Source: a bacterium
GTDB taxonomy: Bacteria > Zixibacteria > MSB-5A5 > GN15 > FEB-12
DNA length: 64,000 bases
NCBI GenBank assembly: GCA_043811375.1
Contig: JBDRNJ010000072.1
Location: 1 to 64,000 of the forward strand
Direction: 5' to 3'
Below are positions 1-62,280 of this stretch, piece after piece. Numbering within the stretch: the first letter of the stretch is position 1; each line of letters opens with the position of its first letter. The notes beneath the pieces were generated by a model, which was given only the letters and a program-made list of their open reading frames with translations, made no database searches and was not told the origin of the DNA. A program made the translations under genes and the position numbers.

Positions 1-159
1 GACCTGGCCACCCTCACCGACAATCGCTTCCTCGAACTCATCCAGGCATACAATAACACACCACGAAAATGTCTGGACTTTCTAACACCAGCAGAGATAT
101 TTTGGAATAACATGTTGCACTTCAAATTTGAATCCACCCCCCCTCCTGCGCGGGGATGA
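1..159 (+). mobile_element. 3' end of an IS30-family transposase (partial) with its right end
   Basis: Frame 1 reads DLATLTDNRFLELIQAYNNTPRKCLDFLTPAEIFWNNMLHFKFES..., matching the IS30 C-terminal motif N-x-x-PRK-x-L-x-x-x-TP-x-E. TGTTGCACTTCAAATTTGAATCCA (113-136) resembles IS30-family terminal inverted repeats. This ORF is missing from the supplied track because it is truncated. Confidence 0.85.
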
Positions 160-160
160 C
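137..160. repeat. REP-like palindrome (GTCA-tailed GC-rich hairpin) at the IS end
   Basis: The reverse complement is GTCATCCCCGCGCAGGAGGGGGGG, one stem mismatch from the widespread GTCATCCCCGCGnAnGCGGGG hairpin. Confidence 0.55.
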
Positions 161-223
161 GATGGTGTTGGTAATTGAGTGTTTCGACGATTGAGCATGA
201 TAGAACACTTTATCAACACCCTG

Positions 224-505
224 CTATAGTTGTCTGCGAATCAACCGGAACCGGGAACGCCTCGACAGCAGTCGCCTTTTTCTCAGGAGAGAGAATACCT
301 CCCACCAACTCACGGGAGCGACTTTTGAGAACCGGTTGGCCGCCCGTTTCATCTCCATGATCGTGGCAAAGGGGTCCTGCTGTACCAGTTGCAGGATGAT
401 GGTTTCCAGATCGGCGGTGGTCGGATCAACCGACTCCTCGGCCGGTAGTTGCTGTCGGCCAGAGGCAACCGCCACCTCCGGTTGATTCATGTTAACAACC
501 GTCAA
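224..505 (-). CDS. Small protein with a helical, basic, HTH-like C-terminal domain; probably the -1 frame extension of the upstream STAS gene
   Basis: LETIILQLVQQDPFATIMEM...VSWWEVFSLLRKRRL. TTG start without an obvious RBS. The frame stays open back through the A10 tract of the STAS gene. Confidence 0.6.
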   Translation of the reverse strand: MTVVNMNQPEVAVASGRQQLPAEESVDPTTADLETIILQLVQQDPFATIMEMKRAANRFSKVAPVSWWEVFSLLRKRRLLSRRSRFRLIRRQL

Positions 506-510
506 GTTGG

Positions 511-897
511 TTACCGATCTTTTTTTTTTGCCGTGGTACCGCCGGAGTTCAGGAAATCATCTCGAGCCTCGTCCACCGAACGGTACACCCTGAGAACTTT
601 GTCGAACTCCAGCAGTTCGTAGATCTCGTAAACGTTGCTGACCATGTTGGCCAGTTTGATGTCACCGCCATTGGCACGGATATCCCTGATATGTGATATG
701 AAAATCCCCCAGCCGGCAGAAGAGATATAATCCACTCCGGCCAGGTCCAGGACCATGCTGTAACGTTCCCGTTTCAACAGGGAATCGATGACTTCTTCCA
801 ACTCTGAAGCCGTAGTGGTGTCGATAACACCGTCAACACGCACCTCGGAGACCTTGTCCTGTTCGCTTTCCGCCAATGAGATTGATATGTTTTCCAT
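511..897 (-). CDS. STAS-domain anti-sigma factor antagonist (RsbV/SpoIIAA family)
   Basis: DGVIDTTTA...VLDLAGVDYISSAGWG retains the phosphorylatable Ser motif; also VYEIYELLEFDKV. Confidence 0.93.
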   Translation of the reverse strand: MENISISLAESEQDKVSEVRVDGVIDTTTASELEEVIDSLLKRERYSMVLDLAGVDYISSAGWGIFISHIRDIRANGGDIKLANMVSNVYEIYELLEFDKVLRVYRSVDEARDDFLNSGGTTAKKKDR

Positions 898-939: not shown

Positions 940-968
940 ATATTAACACCATTGCGGAGCGAAGGCAA
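940..968 (-). promoter_or_regulatory. Putative sigma70 promoter for the STAS gene
   Basis: Minus strand TTGCCT-N17-TAATAT with a TG extended -10, in the 88 bp intergenic gap. Confidence 0.4.
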
Positions 969-985
969 CAAAAAGATTGGAGCTG

Positions 986-3037
986 TCAACTACTTTGACG
1001 CCGCTTGGAATGGCTGCTCCCGACACCCCTGGTCTCGACACCGGTGGCGGACGGAGCGGCAGTCCGAGTGCCCGAGGAGACCTTCGCCGTTTGGACTCGC
1101 GCCACGATGAAAGTGAGGTCATCAGCCGGCTTGACAAAACCAGAGAAATCATCAAGCCGACTGACAATAGCTTTGCTGATGGTGGTGATTTTATGCCGGT
1201 GTAATATCTCGGCAGTAAACAACTGAGTCAGACGGTCCAGGCCGTACTGCTGTCCCTCCCGGTTGATCGTTTCGGTGATGCCGTCCGTGAATATCAGGAA
1301 AGCGTCGTCATCCTGGAGCGTAAATTTGGCTTCCTCCAGTCTTTCCTCAAAGCTCGTCCCCAGAGTCGTCGGCATACCCAGCGGCATTCCGGCCGGATTG
1401 ACCGGCGTCACTTCGTCCCCGGCAGCCCGGTACAGAAGCATCGGGTTGTGACCGGCCGAAACACAGTTCAGTTGACGCTCCGAGCTTTCGTAGATAGCCA
1501 GCATGACGGTGATAAACATTCCGGGCGGGATGTTTTCCTTGAAGTAGTCATTTACCTTGATCAGGATATCCCGAGCCGACACGGCGTTGGCGGCCTGTAT
1601 CTGTATAACCGTGCGCAGCATGGTCATCACCAGCGCGGCCGGCACACCCTTGCCGGAGACATCAGCCACCGCGATGCAGTAACGCTGGGGACCGGTGGCA
1701 AAAACATCGTAAAGATCGCCGCCGACGGTTGCCGCTGCTCGATAGTAGGCATCCAACTGAAGTCCCGGCACATCCGGCAATTGACGCGGCAGCAGGGTTT
1801 TCTGTATCTGGGAAGCCACTTCAATTTCCCGGGTCATTTTCTCTCGAGCAATGATGTTTTTACGGTCACGACTGAGGCGCGTCATAATCTCGTTGAATGC
1901 CTTCGAGATTTCAAAGAACTCCTCGGCTCCTTCCAGGGGCAATTCAGTTTCTAGATCGCCCGAAGCAAACCGTCGCACTCGTCGGGTGATTTTAACTATG
2001 GGTCGGACAAAGTAGTTCGACAGAAAGTAGGTCCCCAAAATACCGAACACCAGCAGGACCAGTATCAGAATAGCTATCTGCAAACGAGCGCGGGCCAGTT
2101 TGTCGTCGATCTCGGATGAAGAATAAGTGATATGCACCAGTCCGATCTGCCTGTCGCTGCTGCCTATGGGCGTGATCAGGTAGCTGCGTTGCCGGCTATC
2201 GTCGGGAAACCGATGGATATAGCGGGTTGAGTTGACATCCACAAAATCAGGCGCCTGATAGCGTTTACGGATATTGTGAATGTCTTCGGAATGGGCCAGA
2301 ATCAACCCGGCCGAATCGGTCAGCACGATCAACTGCAGCTCGGGATTGGATTGCATATAGCTGACAATCAGTTCGTCGAATTCAACGTCCGAACGGCGGT
2401 TGAGAATGTACCCGGCGGCCTGAGCGGCAACCGTCTGAGCCAGGGAATTAACGGTGTCATCCAGGTGACCATAGATATAGCGCGTGGTGCGATGATCGAT
2501 ATAGTAGAAAGCCACCCCGATAATAATCGACATAATCAGGAAGGTCCACACGGAGAACTTCATCCGCAGCGTCAGCAGCCGGCGCAGGAACGGGCGGCCT
2601 TCCGTACGAACTCCCTTTATCCGCTTGATCATGCGCAGTTCATTGAACCCCGCCGCCGAGATGTATTCCACCGAATCCATGATCTTCTGGATCATGTAGA
2701 ATCCCAGACCGCCTTTGCGACCCGAGGCCACCAACCGCTGAAGATCAATCCGTCCGGCGCCTTCCGCCTGAAAAGAACGGCCGGCATCAATCAGGGAGAA
2801 CACCAGCAATTTTCGGTAGACAACAATGCGCAGGCGGATGGTCCCCTTCTCGTACAGGTAGGCGTGGCGGATGATATTGGTAGCCCCTTCCTCAATGGCC
2901 AGCAGGACGGCGGTTATGTCACGGCGTGACATTCCGGCCGCGACGCAGCTTTCGCGAGCCGTACGCTGAATACTGTCGAGATACTTCTCTTCGGCAATAA
3001 ATTCGGCGTTGACTTCTTTTATCGGGCGACGAAACAT
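986..3037 (-). CDS. Membrane-bound fusion: RsbW-like Ser kinase (HATPase), 2 TM segments with periplasmic domain, HAMP, and SpoIIE/PP2C phosphatase
   Basis: N-terminal LAIEEGATNIIRHAY, DAG and GRKGGLG boxes; two hydrophobic segments; HAMP (RPIVKIT...EFFEISKAFNEI); PP2C motifs VGGDLYD, IAVADVSGKG, FTDGITE, DDLT. ATG at 3037 preferred over TTG at 3064. Confidence 0.9.
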   Translation of the reverse strand: MFRRPIKEVNAEFIAEEKYLDSIQRTARESCVAAGMSRRDITAVLLAIEEGATNIIRHAYLYEKGTIRLRIVVYRKLLVFSLIDAGRSFQAEGAGRIDLQRLVASGRKGGLGFYMIQKIMDSVEYISAAGFNELRMIKRIKGVRTEGRPFLRRLLTLRMKFSVWTFLIMSIIIGVAFYYIDHRTTRYIYGHLDDTVNSLAQTVAAQAAGYILNRRSDVEFDELIVSYMQSNPELQLIVLTDSAGLILAHSEDIHNIRKRYQAPDFVDVNSTRYIHRFPDDSRQRSYLITPIGSSDRQIGLVHITYSSSEIDDKLARARLQIAILILVLLVFGILGTYFLSNYFVRPIVKITRRVRRFASGDLETELPLEGAEEFFEISKAFNEIMTRLSRDRKNIIAREKMTREIEVASQIQKTLLPRQLPDVPGLQLDAYYRAAATVGGDLYDVFATGPQRYCIAVADVSGKGVPAALVMTMLRTVIQIQAANAVSARDILIKVNDYFKENIPPGMFITVMLAIYESSERQLNCVSAGHNPMLLYRAAGDEVTPVNPAGMPLGMPTTLGTSFEERLEEAKFTLQDDDAFLIFTDGITETINREGQQYGLDRLTQLFTAEILHRHKITTISKAIVSRLDDFSGFVKPADDLTFIVARVQTAKVSSGTRTAAPSATGVETRGVGSSHSKRRQSS

Positions 3038-3099
3038 TTGTACAATAGTAGTTTTGCCCGGCACCGGAATTCAACTAAAACGATGCGGCCGGCAAGTAA

Positions 3100-56772: not shown

Positions 56773-57762
56773 CTATTTCTTCACTGTCATCGGCCTGATC
56801 TTACTCAGTAGGTCCATAGCCCGCCGCGCACCCAGTGAAGCCGATGTTTCCGACGCTGCAACTGCTCCGGCGAACCCGATTACTGGTTTGTCGTCGGCAG
56901 TAGACGCAACCTCTTTGTGGTAGACCAGAGCGTTTTTGAAATACACCAGTTTGAAAGCCTTCGAAATACCATGCAGCGTCTCCGAATGACCGATATAGAG
57001 ATACCCTCCCGGTGCCAGAGCATTGAAGAACCCCCGGACCAACTGCTTCTTCACTTCATCCGAGAAATAGATCATCACGTTGCGGCAGAAGATGACGTCG
57101 AAATTCGAGTGCATCGTTACCTTGCGTGGGTCATTGAGATTCAGGTGCGAAAACCTGACCAGTGCCTTGACCTGGGGGTTGATATGATAGAGTTCACCTG
57201 ACTTAGTGAAAAACCGGTTCAACCGAGTGGGGTTGACATTACGCAGGGTAAGTCCGTTGTATTCGCCCTTGCGGGCTTTCTGCAAGACCTTTTCGGAAAT
57301 GTCGTTGGCGATTATTTCCACGTTCCATTCCGTCAGGGAGGGCAGCTTTTCCAGGACGATCATCGCCAGCGTGTATGGTTCCTCACCGGTGGAACAGCCG
57401 GCCGACCAGATGCGCAGACTCTTGATCCCCCGACCATTCTGTTTGTTCATCACTAACAGGGGCAGCACTTCATCTGAAAACGACAGAAGCTGCGGTTCGT
57501 TGCGGTAGAAGCTGGTCTCGTTGGTGGTTATGAGATTCATCAGTTGGTGGAATTCCTTCATGGAGGAATCATACTTGACATGGTAGAAATAGTCCCGGCA
57601 GCTCTTGATTCCCAATTCGGCCATTCTCTTGATTAACCTGTTTTTCACCAGGTACATCTTGTTTTCAGCGAAGAAGATACCGCATTTTTCGTGAATGAAG
57701 TCGCGAATCATCACGAATTCTTCGTGTGTCATTTCCGGTTCTTCGACTAGATTTGTCAGCAT
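56773..57762 (-). CDS. cheR: Chemotaxis methyltransferase CheR with a C-terminal tail
   Basis: TTNETSFYR, IWSAGCSTGEEPY, FDVIFCRNVMIYF, GHSE. Confidence 0.96.
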   Translation of the reverse strand: MLTNLVEEPEMTHEEFVMIRDFIHEKCGIFFAENKMYLVKNRLIKRMAELGIKSCRDYFYHVKYDSSMKEFHQLMNLITTNETSFYRNEPQLLSFSDEVLPLLVMNKQNGRGIKSLRIWSAGCSTGEEPYTLAMIVLEKLPSLTEWNVEIIANDISEKVLQKARKGEYNGLTLRNVNPTRLNRFFTKSGELYHINPQVKALVRFSHLNLNDPRKVTMHSNFDVIFCRNVMIYFSDEVKKQLVRGFFNALAPGGYLYIGHSETLHGISKAFKLVYFKNALVYHKEVASTADDKPVIGFAGAVAASETSASLGARRAMDLLSKIRPMTVKK

Positions 57763-57834
57763 GTATCACCCCCGTAGAAACAGCCCCAGTACTTCCTAAT
57801 GGTCAAGAGACACCGTGTTGTCATAACCGATTGC

Positions 57835-58233
57835 TCAATCGTCTCCGTCAAACCCAGTTTCCTTTTCCTGAACCTTGGTTTGAATGACCTTGTAAAGTTT
57901 GTTGATATTGAAGGGTTTGGTAATGTAGTCCGTAACCCGGCAGCGCAGAGCCGTTACAGCCGAGTCGACCGACGGGTAGCCGGTCATCAGGACCACCGGT
58001 ATGTCGGGATATGACTGTTGCATTTCGCTGGTCAGTGTTAATCCGTCCATCTGTGGCATCCTGATGTCGGTCAGGACAAGGTCAATCTTTCTTGATTGCA
58101 GTATCTGGAGAGCTTTTTCGCCGTCTTCAGCGATAGCGATATCCCAGCCGTGTCCGTGAAAGAAATCATACAGCAAGTCTCGGATCAACAGCTCATCATC
58201 CACAACAAGTATCGAGGGTGTATTCAATGTCAT
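57835..58233 (-). CDS. Single-domain response regulator
   Basis: VVDDE, TDIRMP, MTGY, YITKPF; ATGA overlap with the HEAT gene. Confidence 0.9.
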   Translation of the reverse strand: MTLNTPSILVVDDELLIRDLLYDFFHGHGWDIAIAEDGEKALQILQSRKIDLVLTDIRMPQMDGLTLTSEMQQSYPDIPVVLMTGYPSVDSAVTALRCRVTDYITKPFNINKLYKVIQTKVQEKETGFDGDD

Positions 58234-60134
58234 TCTCCCTCAAGGCTGGTGACGGCCATCTCCACGGCCTTGGTAATATCGCTGTTCTTCTCGTCTTGCA
58301 GCCCCTTAATATCCGGCAGGACCTGCCGGCATCCCATCTGAGACAGCGCCTTGATGGCGGCTATCTTGAGGATATCCTGATCATTCTTTAGAAACGGCAG
58401 CAGTAAATCAGCGTGTTTGCTCTGACCTAGGCTGCCGATGGCGGTGATGGCATGATAGCAAACCCAGACATCCTCATCGTCGAGAAGAAACCTGATGTCC
58501 GGAATTGCATCTTCTCCGCGCAATGTAATCAGCGCCGTCACGGCCGCCTTGCGCACCCCGGTGTTTTCATCGTTAAGAGCCAGTGACAACAGCTTGACAT
58601 CGGGGACCTGGCCGATTCTGGCCAGCGAGTTGATAGCCGACTTGCGTACCTCCGGTTCGGGATGATTGACGGCCTTCAACAATGGTTCCACGACCTCGGT
58701 TTCACCGATCATGCCCAGGGCCGTAACCGCCAGACGTTGTTTCTCGGCGTCCTGATGGTAGAGATCGGCGGTGAACTTAGCCACCACCCTGGGTCCGCCG
58801 GCCACTACCAGGGCACCCATAGCCGCTTCGCGCACGTCGACGTACTTGTCCTCCAGCCCCCTGAAAAGAATGTCCGTATCTTCTTCGGTGCACAGCCAGC
58901 CGAGGGCGCCGAAGGCTGCGGCGCGCACATGACCGACCTCGTCGGAGGCTAGTCTTTTCAGAACCTCAGAAGTCTCGACAATTCCGGACAAGCCCAGGGT
59001 ATGGGCAATTTTCCGCCGGATTTCAGGATCGGGATCATCGACAAAGTCAGTCAGCCTGACGGCGATTTCATGGTCAGTAAATCCGCGCAGGATTTCCAGC
59101 AGCACCAGCTTGGTATGCGACGATGCCCGGGGAAACATCTTAAGAATCGGCTCGGTGGCGTTAGGTCCGATTTGTTCGATAATTTCGGAAACATGTTTAA
59201 GCGTTTCCTCATCAACAAAATCCAACACTTCCAGCAGAGATTTCATAACATCCCGGCCGTACCAGTTCGTGAGACGGGAGAGCGTGAAGTCGGTGATTTT
59301 GGAATTGCGGCTTTTGATGCCGTCGAAGAGAAAGTCAGAAAACTTGTCCAGCGGCAGATCACAGTCAATCTTACCGCCGTGTCTGATACTGATATCTATA
59401 ATCGCCGTGAGAGCTGCCTCGGCAATAGTTCTATCCTCATGATCGAGATATGCCAGCAGTTTTTCGATCGAATTCTTAAGGCCGATATTGCCGATAGCTT
59501 CGATGGCGGCATACAGGATCACCGGATCATCGGTCTTGAGGAAACCGAACAGCATATCCAGGCTGGACGGATCGCCGATCTTCCCCAGAGCCTCAATAAC
59601 CTGCAGACGTGAGTCCTCACAGCGCTGGTAAGCGGCTACCAGTTCAGAAATCGCTTTGGAAGAGCCGATTTCACCCAGTGCCTCAGCAGCCGAGCAGACA
59701 ACGTTGTCATTTTCGTCCGAGAGACTTTTGCACAGCGGTTTGACGGCTGACTCATCTTTAATGAGCCCCAGCACGTCCACTACGAACTTGCGTACATCGG
59801 GATCGTCGCTTTCCAGGGCTTCAACCAGGGACTGAATCGCCGGGGCACCAATACGAACCAGTATCTCGGCGGCCAGGTTGCGTGTTCCGATGTCCCCGTG
59901 GGCGAGAAAACGGATCAGTAACTGGGAAACAATTTCCCCCTGCATTTTCCCCAGAACGTCGGCCGCTAATTCCCTGATACCCAGATCGGTGTCTTCCAGC
60001 GCCAGTACCAGCCCGGCTACGGCCTCATCCTCGGTGTACCGGCCCAGCTCCTTGACCGCCTCCTCGCGTTCGTAAAAGTCCGGCGACTGCAGGTTTGTCA
60101 ACAGTTGTCCGATGCGCTCGATTACATTACTCAT
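58230..60134 (-). CDS. HEAT/PBS-lyase-like repeat protein
   Basis: Many repeats of L...L.D.D..VR..A..ALG.IG along the whole length. Confidence 0.92.
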   Translation of the reverse strand: MSNVIERIGQLLTNLQSPDFYEREEAVKELGRYTEDEAVAGLVLALEDTDLGIRELAADVLGKMQGEIVSQLLIRFLAHGDIGTRNLAAEILVRIGAPAIQSLVEALESDDPDVRKFVVDVLGLIKDESAVKPLCKSLSDENDNVVCSAAEALGEIGSSKAISELVAAYQRCEDSRLQVIEALGKIGDPSSLDMLFGFLKTDDPVILYAAIEAIGNIGLKNSIEKLLAYLDHEDRTIAEAALTAIIDISIRHGGKIDCDLPLDKFSDFLFDGIKSRNSKITDFTLSRLTNWYGRDVMKSLLEVLDFVDEETLKHVSEIIEQIGPNATEPILKMFPRASSHTKLVLLEILRGFTDHEIAVRLTDFVDDPDPEIRRKIAHTLGLSGIVETSEVLKRLASDEVGHVRAAAFGALGWLCTEEDTDILFRGLEDKYVDVREAAMGALVVAGGPRVVAKFTADLYHQDAEKQRLAVTALGMIGETEVVEPLLKAVNHPEPEVRKSAINSLARIGQVPDVKLLSLALNDENTGVRKAAVTALITLRGEDAIPDIRFLLDDEDVWVCYHAITAIGSLGQSKHADLLLPFLKNDQDILKIAAIKALSQMGCRQVLPDIKGLQDEKNSDITKAVEMAVTSLEGE

Positions 60135-60175
60135 ATATCAACCCCTTGTCTGTCAATTGATCAGGCACACCGGGA

Positions 60176-60538
60176 TCAGCCGGCGGCGACAGCCTGGTAG
60201 GAATTGAGTGCTTCCTGTTCGGTAGCATATATCTCAAAGATGTGCGACAGCTGCGTGATCTCAAATATCTCCTGCACATAACTGGCCAGGTTCGACAGCG
60301 TCAGGCGACCCTTGCGCAGACGAATCTCCTTCATCATCGATACCAGGGAACCTAACCCGGAGCTGTTGATAAACTCGACATCAGCAAGGTTCAGGTGGAT
60401 TGCTGTTTTCTCCTTTTCGAACAACTGTTTGACCTGTTCCTTGAGTGCGGAACCGGTGGCCAGATCCAGCCGGCCTTTGAGGTTTAGAATGGATACGTTG
60501 GCTTCTTCTCTGACATTGATTTCCATGGTTTCCTCCAC
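60176..60538 (-). CDS. STAS anti-sigma factor antagonist
   Basis: LKGRLD...NLADVEFINSSGLG...VQEIFEITQL. Confidence 0.93.
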   Translation of the reverse strand: MEETMEINVREEANVSILNLKGRLDLATGSALKEQVKQLFEKEKTAIHLNLADVEFINSSGLGSLVSMMKEIRLRKGRLTLSNLASYVQEIFEITQLSHIFEIYATEQEALNSYQAVAAG

Positions 60539-60544
60539 ATTCAG

Positions 60545-60979
60545 CTATGTATGGTGACTAATATTCTCTTTTGTCTCGGTTAGTTCGAACTTGAGCGTGA
60601 CCTTCAGTCCGCTATCCGGCGTTTCCGTGAATCTAAGGTCGGCAGCGTAATGCTGCATAATATCCACACCACGTCCCCCCTCTGATAGCACGGATGCGGG
60701 TTGTCGGTTCTCGATTCGTTCAAGTCCATCCTGACCCTGGTCAATAATATCGGCAGATAGATCGTTCTCATTTATATGCAGAATCAGTTTAATCTCTTTG
60801 TGGGGGTCACGCCGGTTGCCATGCACCAGGGCGTTGGTAAACGCCTCCGACACCGCCAGCAGGATGTGGTTGCGCAACTCATCCGTTATTCGGTTGGTCT
60901 CCAGGATTACCATCACTTCATCGAGCATCTGGTCTTCAGAATCCGAAACCGAAGGATAAGTGTGTTCGTAATGCGGCAT
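60545..60979 (-). CDS. RsbW/SpoIIAB-like anti-sigma factor Ser kinase
   Basis: LAVSEAFTNALVHGN, DQG, EGGRGV; GAAGTGA RBS-like sequence before ATG 60979. Confidence 0.9.
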   Translation of the reverse strand: MPHYEHTYPSVSDSEDQMLDEVMVILETNRITDELRNHILLAVSEAFTNALVHGNRRDPHKEIKLILHINENDLSADIIDQGQDGLERIENRQPASVLSEGGRGVDIMQHYAADLRFTETPDSGLKVTLKFELTETKENISHHT

Positions 60980-60981
60980 GA

Positions 60982-62280
60982 TCACTTCACCTTGACCTGA
61001 AGGATAGTGAAATCGTCCTGCATGTCTTCGGAGGCTCCCTCGGCAAACCGGTCGACCCATTCTTTGACCTTGTGACAGAACTCCTTGGGGGATAGCCCGA
61101 TTTCGGAGGTAAACACCTGCTCTGCCCGCTCTCGACCGAAAAGGTTGTTGTCGGCGTCGGCAGCTTCGGTCAGACCATCCGTGAACAGAAACAGCCTGTC
61201 GCCGGAGGCTAACCGACGCTGTCCCTGTTTGAACACAAAGCCAGCGAACTGGCCAACGATCGGTCCCCCCACGGCCAGTTCACAGACGGTCTGCTTCTCC
61301 TCATCCCAGAAAAGCCCCGGCAGGTGCCCGGCGTTACAGAACGTCAGAGTCGTGTTCTCAAGGTCGAATTTGGCGAAGAACAGCGTGACAAACATCTCGC
61401 GTTCCTTAATGATCGAATCGGCCAACAGGTCGTTGAGCCTGGCGACCAGGTCGGCGACCTCAATCTCGGGATTGGTCGCCAACAGGGAACTGATGATTCC
61501 GGATGCGGCCGACATCACCAGGGCCGCCGGCACACCTTTGTTGGAAACATCACCCAGAACCACCACAAAACGGTGGTCGTCCAACCTGAGAATGTCATAG
61601 AAATCGCCACCTACTTCGCGGGCCGGAAAGTAAACGGCGCCGATCTCTGTCCCCGCTATGGCATCAATATCCTGCGGAAGGATTGTCTCCTGAATCTGGC
61701 GGGCAATCGCCATCTCCTGTTCCATCTTCTGCTGCGTGAGCTTGTGCTTGATGAGGATCGAGTTGTCGATTGCGACGGCCACGAAATTCAGCAACATCTC
61801 CAGGCATTCCTGGTCCTCTTCGCCATAACTGCCACCCTCGGCTTTGTTGATAATCAGCAGTACACCGTGGCAGCGGTCGGACGTTTGAATGGGCACGCTG
61901 ATAATCGATTGGATGGACAAACCGCTGTCGTCCTTGATTTCCAAATCGTTGAGAATAACTGTCTGGTGGTTCTGGTAGCAGTAGCCGGCAAGATCCAGGT
62001 CATCCCGGTACATCAGCGACCGGGCAAACTCCCCGTTGACACCCCAACTGATTTTGACCTTCAACTGATCGTTCTCATGCAGCATTATCAGACCGACTTC
62101 GCCGTCAACCAGCCTTATGGCCATATCCATCACCACCGACAGGACGGCATTGATCTCATGTATAGACGTAATGACGGTCCCCATGGTCGCCAGGTCGCGC
62201 AACTCAGCCTTCTTGGCTTCCAGTCGAGATTCCAACTCTTCGAGGTGGTCACTCGTATCGGTATTTGTACAAACAGTCAT
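60982..62280 (-). CDS. GAF plus SpoIIE/PP2C phosphatase (RsbU-like)
   Basis: GAF (SIISVPI...GVLLIINK...VAVAIDN), EVGGDFYD, GDVSNKG, FTDGLTEA, DDFT. Confidence 0.92.
   Translation of the reverse strand: MTVCTNTDTSDHLEELESRLEAKKAELRDLATMGTVITSIHEINAVLSVVMDMAIRLVDGEVGLIMLHENDQLKVKISWGVNGEFARSLMYRDDLDLAGYCYQNHQTVILNDLEIKDDSGLSIQSIISVPIQTSDRCHGVLLIINKAEGGSYGEEDQECLEMLLNFVAVAIDNSILIKHKLTQQKMEQEMAIARQIQETILPQDIDAIAGTEIGAVYFPAREVGGDFYDILRLDDHRFVVVLGDVSNKGVPAALVMSAASGIISSLLATNPEIEVADLVARLNDLLADSIIKEREMFVTLFFAKFDLENTTLTFCNAGHLPGLFWDEEKQTVCELAVGGPIVGQFAGFVFKQGQRRLASGDRLFLFTDGLTEAADADNNLFGRERAEQVFTSEIGLSPKEFCHKVKEWVDRFAEGASEDMQDDFTILQVKVK

Follow-up and report, generated by a model that had tools for sequence, protein, structure and literature searches.

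An A10 run in a STAS gene of uncultured Zixibacteria is a conserved site of apparent recoding between forms with and without an HTH-like tail

Background

Why should a gene for a small STAS protein end in a run of ten adenines exactly where its reading frame gives way to a second open frame? This question is raised by the first locus of a 64,000-nucleotide stretch of a zixibacterial genome (positions 1 to 64,000 of contig JBDRNJ010000072.1, assembly GCA_043811375.1), which is called the window here. The original prediction, made from the letters of the window, proposed that recoding at the run makes a minor form of the STAS protein with an HTH-like extension, and that this form could supply the output missing from a partner switch without a sigma factor. 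In this report we compare the locus across the phylum, model the tail, and weigh the mechanisms by which one gene could give both products.

Results

Reading frames at the A10 run

The STAS gene (511..897, minus strand) in its default reading specifies a short isoform of 128 aa, whose C-terminal end, ...AKKKDR, is followed by a TAA stop (511..513, minus strand) 6 nt past a tract of ten A's (520-529, minus strand; the plus strand reads T10). The predicted end of the gene and the predicted tract were thus found on the coding strand, and so was a -1 frame that is open into an ORF of 93 aa: the tail frame (-1 with respect to STAS) has 110 codons from stop to stop, between 556 and 224, and therefore crosses the run and contains the 93-aa ORF; the conserved helical tail that it encodes measures 72 aa. 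The third frame ends at another TAA (492..494, minus strand), which is used with A9 or A12 and gives a product of 134-135 aa. When products were computed by tract length, A10 gave 128 aa, A11 gave 224 aa and A9 gave 134 aa; one extra A joins STAS to the tail. The 93-aa ORF begins at a TTG at 505, which had been called a weak start, and because the close strains X1 and X3 have CTG at that place, this TTG is not a conserved start.

The A10 run is not an assembly slip. Neither A11 nor A8, the lengths that would have pointed to an assembly error, was seen: contigs of close strains, from three sequencing runs in three studies, extend across the tract with no gap (X1 230-999, X3 482-750, X8 429-577), and a metagenome locus with 96% STAS identity (L205) has the same A10 and the same -1 split. 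This comparison is of contigs, which drop rare length variants, and it covers part of the substitution rows, with no gap row at the run. Homopolymer overcalls are possible in this assembly generally, because the run in its dnaX gene is A11, against A10 in most relatives, and splits the frame, whereas all 23 other dnaX loci with a run are in frame.

The STAS protein and its neighbors

The product of 511..897 is of the anti-sigma-factor-antagonist type (Pfam STAS, E 2e-18; TIGR00377 above the cut-off), and it matches TM1442, SpoIIAA and RsbV at E values of 1e-8 to 1e-7. It has the features of SpoIIAA/RsbV-type antagonists, namely the STAS fold and a conserved serine. Ser59 and Ser60 of a YISSAG motif (718..723, minus strand) are both invariant in 71 fused proteins, and ISSA or VSSA is found in 152 of 156 STAS rows. 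Ser60, which we take to be equivalent to the phosphorylated serine of SpoIIAA, is likely the phospho-acceptor. Upstream lies a gene for a membrane protein (986..3064, minus strand) that combines an RsbW-type kinase, Cache, HAMP and a SpoIIE/PP2C phosphatase, and that is likely both the writer and the eraser of the STAS phosphate; it is preceded by genes for a TPR protein and a large FlgD_ig protein. A (C/G)TTGC motif (964..969, minus strand) lies 50-90 nt before the STAS start, after a T-run, in 75 of 95 loci of the family to which the window belongs (f1), compared with 2-7 in control windows, and may be an internal promoter element or a candidate binding site for the tail. A scan for sigma-70 consensus promoters upstream of STAS found none.

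In relatives, the gene downstream encodes a membrane GGDEF protein (93 of 96 f1 loci and 18 of 18 loci of a second family, f4, among those with enough flank), and polysaccharide-export genes come next. In this genome the GGDEF ortholog starts at the end of contig C48. This membrane diguanylate cyclase, whose gene follows directly in relatives, is likely another output of the switch, which the original prediction took to lack one. The genome has 20 Sigma70_r4 matches, none of them on contigs C72 or C48, and no sigma factor was found in the locus, although a sigma partner is possibly encoded elsewhere in the genome.

The tail and the GGDEF gene are parted in this genome by the end of an IS30-like element in a REP-like hairpin (1..200, plus strand), which is antisense to the operon and whose other end lies on C48 (L252:2300-2440) with HTH_38. 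The piece on the window side (1..200) had no Pfam or NCBIfam match, and its IS30 likeness is our assumption. The element breaks the assembly. It is absent from the strain contigs X1, X5 and X8, and the strain contigs join the tail and the GGDEF gene directly; its insertion may affect the expression of the cyclase and polysaccharide genes. A second partner-switch cluster is located in the window at 56773-62280 (minus strand), with a STAS gene at 60176-60538; its other members are presumably a SpoIIE-type phosphatase, an RsbW-like kinase, a HEAT-repeat protein, a receiver and a CheR-like gene.

The tail

In the tail frame, the run is followed by a linker (425..519, minus strand) that is predicted to be disordered and that starts with a moderately conserved VTxLTVVD/E-like peptide, the codons of which carry the off-frame stops. 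The rest of the frame (224..424, minus strand) encodes a predicted four-helix tail, which consists of a three-helix HTH without a wing and an Arg-rich last helix. A DPF motif and an Arg are invariant and WW is near-invariant, and the last helix has an invariant Arg and a near-invariant Phe. A model built from 141 tails (pLDDT 87) has helices at residues 7-22, 28-38, 46-55 and 61-71 and no strands; at the level of the fold, it agrees with the HTH-like tail and the basic helical C-terminus that had been predicted. In a model of a natural fusion (L065), STAS and the tail are separate domains, and linker residues 121-159 have pLDDT below 50.

In similarity searches, Pfam HTH_Tnp_Tc3_2 matched 71 of 141 tail members at E <= 0.1 (best 7.5e-6), whereas the tail of the window alone had no Pfam or NCBIfam match, and a PDB sequence search with the tail profile gave best E values of only 0.34 and 0.9. 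Structure searches, including the Foldseek check proposed with the original prediction, returned mostly HTH proteins, all of them weak (the PAX6 paired domain, FapR and Lrp); the top Foldseek match was the PAX6 paired domain at E 1.3, and with VIA-align (best Z 7.4) no solved fold stood out (Z <8). An ESM Atlas search with the tail gave unnamed clusters at 0.89-0.90, which serve as leads only. The tail profile had 115 matches among 1.8 billion representatives, and the 29 that were scanned included 9 STAS fusions and 12 multi-HTH proteins (HTH_28/HTH_32 or HTH_21 type), with weak matches to tandem HTH_28/HTH_32 proteins. The fusions that carried a name were "STAS domain" or "anti-sigma antagonist" proteins. 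There is thus fair support for a predicted HTH fold, and the tail may well bind DNA. In four proteins weakly related to the tail (P0093, P0102, P0108 and P0112), tandem transposase-like HTH repeats are fused to family-2 glycosyltransferases, and it is possible that this type of HTH is recurrently linked to polysaccharide loci.

Conservation of the run

Of 61 near relatives, 52 have the tail, as do 219 of 285 genomes of the phylum. We examined 159 of the 221 matching loci, from 158 genomes; the other 62 comprised weaker matches, among them 5 in f1 and 7 in f4, and one at a contig edge. Family f1 contributed 98 loci and f4 contributed 19, and because the genomes are related, the locus counts are not independent. 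A run of A9-11 at STAS residue 120-127 was present in every one of the 117 loci from these two families of uncultured Zixibacteria (A10 in 97, A9 in 18 and A11 in 2). The tail was in frame with STAS in 40 of these loci, in the -1 frame in 71 and in the +1 frame in 6. The relatives therefore keep an A-run at the same out-of-frame junction, as recoding would lead one to expect, and within f1 and f4 we saw neither fusions without a run nor tails that were always independent with their own RBS. The long form is the default product in the 40 in-frame loci, and its description as a minor form is therefore not borne out. All 42 loci of f2, f3, f5, f10, f17, f19 and f20 are in-frame fusions whose longest run is at most A7, and natural in-frame STAS-tail fusions amount to 82 of the 159 loci. 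The run starts in codon phases 2, 1 and 0 in 83, 26 and 8 of the 117 loci, respectively, and therefore its nucleotide length is kept but its codon phase is not.

Frame states are mixed within 8 of 56 genera. For genera g43, g4 and g58, the flip is one of A10 versus A9, whereas in g24 and g30 the states differ through bases beside an unchanged A10. Since A10 is the modal length in fused (39/40), -1 (54/71) and +1 (4/6) loci alike, the state is mostly not set by the length of the run. Some genera are wholly split (g60, 5/5; g12, 4/4; g10, 4/4). On a quick tree of STAS and the tail core (156 rows; L005, L062 and L158 were omitted as truncated), 24 changes of frame state are needed against a minimum of 3, while the run itself needs one change, the run-bearing rows being one side of a branch (59-row subset, support 84, not starred). 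Each of the six +1 loci is a separate tip. One of them, L089, groups with another genus, and genome G157 holds two copies of the locus, L089 and L145; L089 is probably a bin contamination. In 80 metagenome loci, partly from the same contigs, all 24 frame-shifted loci have A9-10, and the remainder are 17 fusions with the run, 35 fusions without it, 3 loci without the tail and a separate case, L191, whose linker contains an in-frame stop.

Long A/T runs are rare in the 3.56-Mb genome, with 6 of at least 10 nt and 25 of at least 9 nt, and on the sense strand of long ORFs there are fewer A9+ runs than codon resampling predicts (9 against ~29). Chance therefore does not account for a run in all 117 loci. 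Three of the six longest A/T runs stand at frame junctions, namely those of STAS, dnaX and mnmE. The dnaX gene (C8:5846-7586, L251) is split at its A11 with the tau tail in the +1 frame, so that tau would depend on slippage here unless the assembly has one A too many. Over the loci compared (L251, L253-L282), the gamma/tau junction carries A9-11 in 24 of 30 loci, and both off-frame stops lie within 45 nt in 22 of those 24. In mnmE (C50:3840-3849, L309), an A10 lies just past the likely start codon, the coding frame is -1, and no in-frame ATG or GTG is nearby; an A9-10 between the start codon and a -1 coding frame was found in 5 of 19 f1 genomes, including this one, and in none of 11 others.

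Selection on both products

Stops in both non-tail frames occur at most 45 nt after the run in 111 of 117 loci, compared with 7 of 42 tractless loci and 7-54 of ~115 at control positions. Among fused run-bearing loci, such dual stops are present in 39 of 40, against 14.7 expected when codons are resampled with the tail-frame amino acids fixed. Counted per genus, they are present in 52 of 56, against 22.1 expected under the same synonymous resampling. For the tail core, dN/dS is 0.135 where it is split, 0.131 where it is fused with the run and 0.117 in tractless loci (8, 8 and 7 disjoint within-genus pairs, respectively, some of them near saturation), and for STAS it is 0.04-0.05. Judged by these ratios, the tail is under purifying selection where it is split, as it is where it is fused. 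In a fused genome the run serves only to make the short form, and in a split genome only to make the long one, so that selection likely acts on both products.

Signals for other ways of making the tail were sought around the run. An ATG in the linker is present in only 14 of 71 -1 loci, 31 of the 71 have no ATG, GTG or TTG there at all, and start codons are equally frequent in fused loci. An independent start or translational coupling of the tail was rejected, as no start codon is conserved. The use of SD sequences looks low in these organisms (13 of 135 STAS starts), and therefore a missing SD before the tail says little. No conserved SD-like site was found near the run (41 of 117 loci, inside the control range of 7-48), nor a conserved hairpin at it (mean z of -0.14 downstream and +0.20 upstream, 55 genera); a downstream z of -2 or less occurs in 3 of 55 genera over 50 nt and in 7 of 55 over 80 nt, and the window alone has a z of -2.5 over 80 nt.

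Outgroup loci

In families with tractless fusions, the genetic surroundings differ from those of the window. A gene for an orphan ATPase of the ParA/MinD family abuts the fusion, directly before it, in 24 of 24 loci of f5, f10 and f17. In three such loci that were read at length, L283 (f17), L284 (f10) and L285 (f5), the kinase/phosphatase has 940-969 aa and an acidic tail; two of the three kinases were scanned and carry an extra transposase-like paired HTH, and one of the three weakly matches the tail profile. Both the ATPase and the kinase paired HTH are absent from the locus of the window. The link between the ATPase and the run is not strict, because f2 (2 loci) lacks both. ParA as an obligatory partner of the tail was rejected, since the tail persists in f1-f4 without an adjacent ATPase and 41 genomes give only matches of 31-36%, which are probably chromosomal Soj. 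In f3 (L286), a tractless STAS-HTH gene is located after a gene for a sigma-54 activator, which is the upstream gene in 4 rows, and before a subtilase gene; a conserved motif upstream presumably resembles a sigma-54 promoter.

Discussion

The central claim of the original prediction, that two isoforms arise by recoding at the A-run, is supported by the conservation of the run in 117 of 117 loci, by the natural fusions in 82 of 159 loci and by the purifying selection on the split tail. We give a probability of about 0.7 to the reading that every cell makes STAS as well as STAS-HTH through transcriptional slippage of the dnaX type on the A10 run. The RNA:DNA hybrid of 9-10 bp would realign on the A-run, mostly adding A's, and mixed mRNAs would result. 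With the allele of the window, the unslipped message would give the 128-aa protein and a message with one extra A the 224-aa protein, and in relatives whose default reading is the fusion, it is the short form that this slip would give. The serine that is the presumed target of the upstream membrane kinase/phosphatase is present in both forms. A role for the short form would be to compete for this enzyme or to act on the neighboring diguanylate cyclase, whose gene precedes those for polysaccharide export, and the long form would plausibly add a nucleic-acid-binding output, by analogy with CapS.

The length of the run (9-10 nt in 115 of 117 loci and never under 9) fits the polymerase, because polymerase slippage is efficient at 9 A/T and the hybrid is 9-10 bp (excerpt of PMC5009743), while sliding of the ribosome is robust at A11 and slight at A9-10 (excerpt of PMC4363877). 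Mixed shift directions among orthologs are a published sign of transcriptional realignment (excerpt of PMC3711429), and a conserved run of at least 9, more than one shift direction and stops in both unproductive frames are all present here. Several points count against the polymerase. The bias of 71 to 6 toward -1 also fits -1 ribosomal frameshifting, a heptamer, A_AAA_AAA (as in the window) or A_AAA_AAG, lies inside every run, and in a series of poly(A) tracts of up to 8, the E. coli polymerase, which favors poly(T), did not rescue deletions (excerpt of PMC6260861). In addition, the six +1 loci could be errors or transient alleles, because all are separate tips and L089 may be a contamination.

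A shift by the ribosome, either -1 programmed frameshifting on A_AAA_AAA/G or sliding on AAA codons, would yield the same two proteins from a uniform mRNA. It would explain why 71 of the 77 split loci are -1 and why G directly follows the run in 110 of 117 loci, and in fused loci a -1 shift also ends early (stop at a median of 32 nt). We nevertheless regard it as unlikely, because a heptamer needs 7 nt, yet all runs have at least 9; the phase is free; and neither an SD nor a hairpin is conserved. In fused loci, the frame that cannot be reached by a -1 shift also stops early (40 of 40 against 28.3 expected), and 6 of the 77 split loci need +1, though errors may be among these. The genome has two tRNA-Lys(CUU) genes, and tRNA-Lys(CUU) should weaken shifting on A_AAA_AAG. 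Other considerations come from work elsewhere: A_AAA_AAG is among the best motifs in E. coli and stimulators of -1 frameshifting are not universal in bacteria (excerpts of PMC4066793), but sliding is slight at A9-10 (excerpt of PMC4363877). Of the two routes named in the original prediction, polymerase slippage is thus favored over -1 ribosomal frameshifting, since no run is shorter than 9, the phase is free and no SD or hairpin is conserved.

Replication slippage could turn the tail ON or OFF in sub-populations, with one form per cell, and in g43, g4 and g58 the states do differ simply by A10 versus A9. Regulators of surface polysaccharides are typical targets of phase variation. However, A10 is modal in fused, -1 and +1 loci, the states in g24 and g30 differ beside an unchanged A10, and genera g60, g12 and g10 are wholly split with undiminished selection on the tail. 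The genome has MutS, the close-strain contigs match at the run without an indel (rare variants would be hidden in contigs), and the same A10 design occurs in dnaX, where two products are needed in one cell, which argues for slippage at the level of expression; phase variation of the DNA is accordingly improbable. It is still harder to maintain that the long fusion is the sole functional product and that the run is a mutational hot spot at which slippage rescues shifted alleles. All 42 tractless loci of seven families are fused, and endosymbionts are known to use slippage on poly(A) for rescue (excerpt of PMC5009743), but all 40 in-frame f1 and f4 loci have the run in spite of the genome-wide depletion of A9+ runs, and they keep synonymous choices that place both off-frame stops (39 of 40 against 14.7). 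Because the in-frame loci retain the run together with these stops, there appears to be selection for the short product. Two separate genes, one for STAS and one for a small HTH protein with its own or a coupled start, or else an assembly artefact, are the least probable. Gene callers do give many stand-alone tails of 56-115 aa, and the low SD use (13/135) makes a missing SD uninformative; however, the linker has an ATG in only 14 of 71 -1 loci and no ATG, GTG or TTG in 31 of them, the TTG at 505 is CTG in close strains, the run would be left unexplained, and independent assemblies agree.

Transcriptional slippage can also be placed, tentatively, in a wider account drawn from comparison of the loci. 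The ancestor would have had a fixed STAS-HTH fusion together with an ATPase of the ParA/MinD type, and its kinase would have carried a paired HTH. Along with the loss of this HTH and of the ATPase, one lineage would have gained the run, so that A10 slippage became an isoform dial that replaces the lost parts and makes a DNA-binding regulator along with a tailless competitor. If this account, which we consider doubtful at present, is true, the default frame is an evolvable setting of a ratio, which splits a membrane signal between transcription and c-di-GMP control of surface polysaccharide. More generally, the locus suggests a route to transcriptional output in a sigma-less partner switch. It is an unusually clean case, since a single site is represented by more than 100 natural alleles in three default frames and is absent from an outgroup, and it makes testable how slippage sets isoform ratios and why the length of the run settles at 9-10. 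Database entries for most of the family wrongly show two ORFs in place of this gene.

Read from the sequences, this is a real, conserved recoding site. The literature searched contained no such case in a STAS or partner-switching protein, no recoding of a STAS gene and no recoding in Zixibacteria, with most subscription papers outside its scope, and the list of conserved, productive recoding in non-mobile bacterial genes is a short one. "STAS" and "anti-sigma" are absent from the main text and two supplementary files of PMC3711429, the third file of which may list further clusters. The closest parallel in design is dnaX. The Thermus thermophilus gene has stops in both non-zero frames (excerpt of PMC5009743), and there is a cluster of two-ORF dnaX genes with 10 A's (A10 cluster, Antonov et al. 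2013, excerpt of PMC3711429); as in these, an A9-10 lies in an interdomain linker with stops nearby in both other frames, the short and long products share their N-terminus, and either form can be the default reading. Unlike dnaX, the gene with this predicted slippage encodes a signaling STAS protein and not a subunit of the replisome, and within this one gene family close relatives repeatedly differ in their default frame.

Other systems resemble the locus in its parts. CapS, of the CapK-CapS pair, is a repressor that binds DNA as a phosphorylation-sensitive homodimer and has a winged HTH (ArsR/MarR-like) directly after STAS (excerpt of PMC13373217), whereas the tail described here lacks strands, is set off from STAS by a disordered linker of 40 residues and shows a weak likeness to HTHs of the transposase/paired type; the kinase is a membrane sensor fused to a phosphatase, and the context is polysaccharide export, not immunity. 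Lacking a wing and having a different kinase and context, the protein is not a CapS, and neither "frameshift" nor "slippage" occurs in the main text of the CapS paper. With regard to signaling, Pseudomonas HsbR/HsbA/HsbD and SiaABCD are switches of the same type with a diguanylate cyclase as neighbor. Vibrio fischeri SypE/SypA is similar in that a dual kinase/phosphatase acts on a STAS protein and that the polysaccharide/biofilm locus has no sigma factor next to these genes (excerpt of PMC8256260). SypA consists of STAS only, while the enzyme described here has two sensor parts (Cache and HAMP) that are membrane-flanked, and the STAS gene appears to be recoded into two forms. Finally, as with Shigella mxiE and spa13, slippage would yield an extended regulator from a gene that does not belong to a mobile element; those genes belong to other protein families and their extended product is needed, whereas here both forms appear to be selected (excerpt of PMC5009743).
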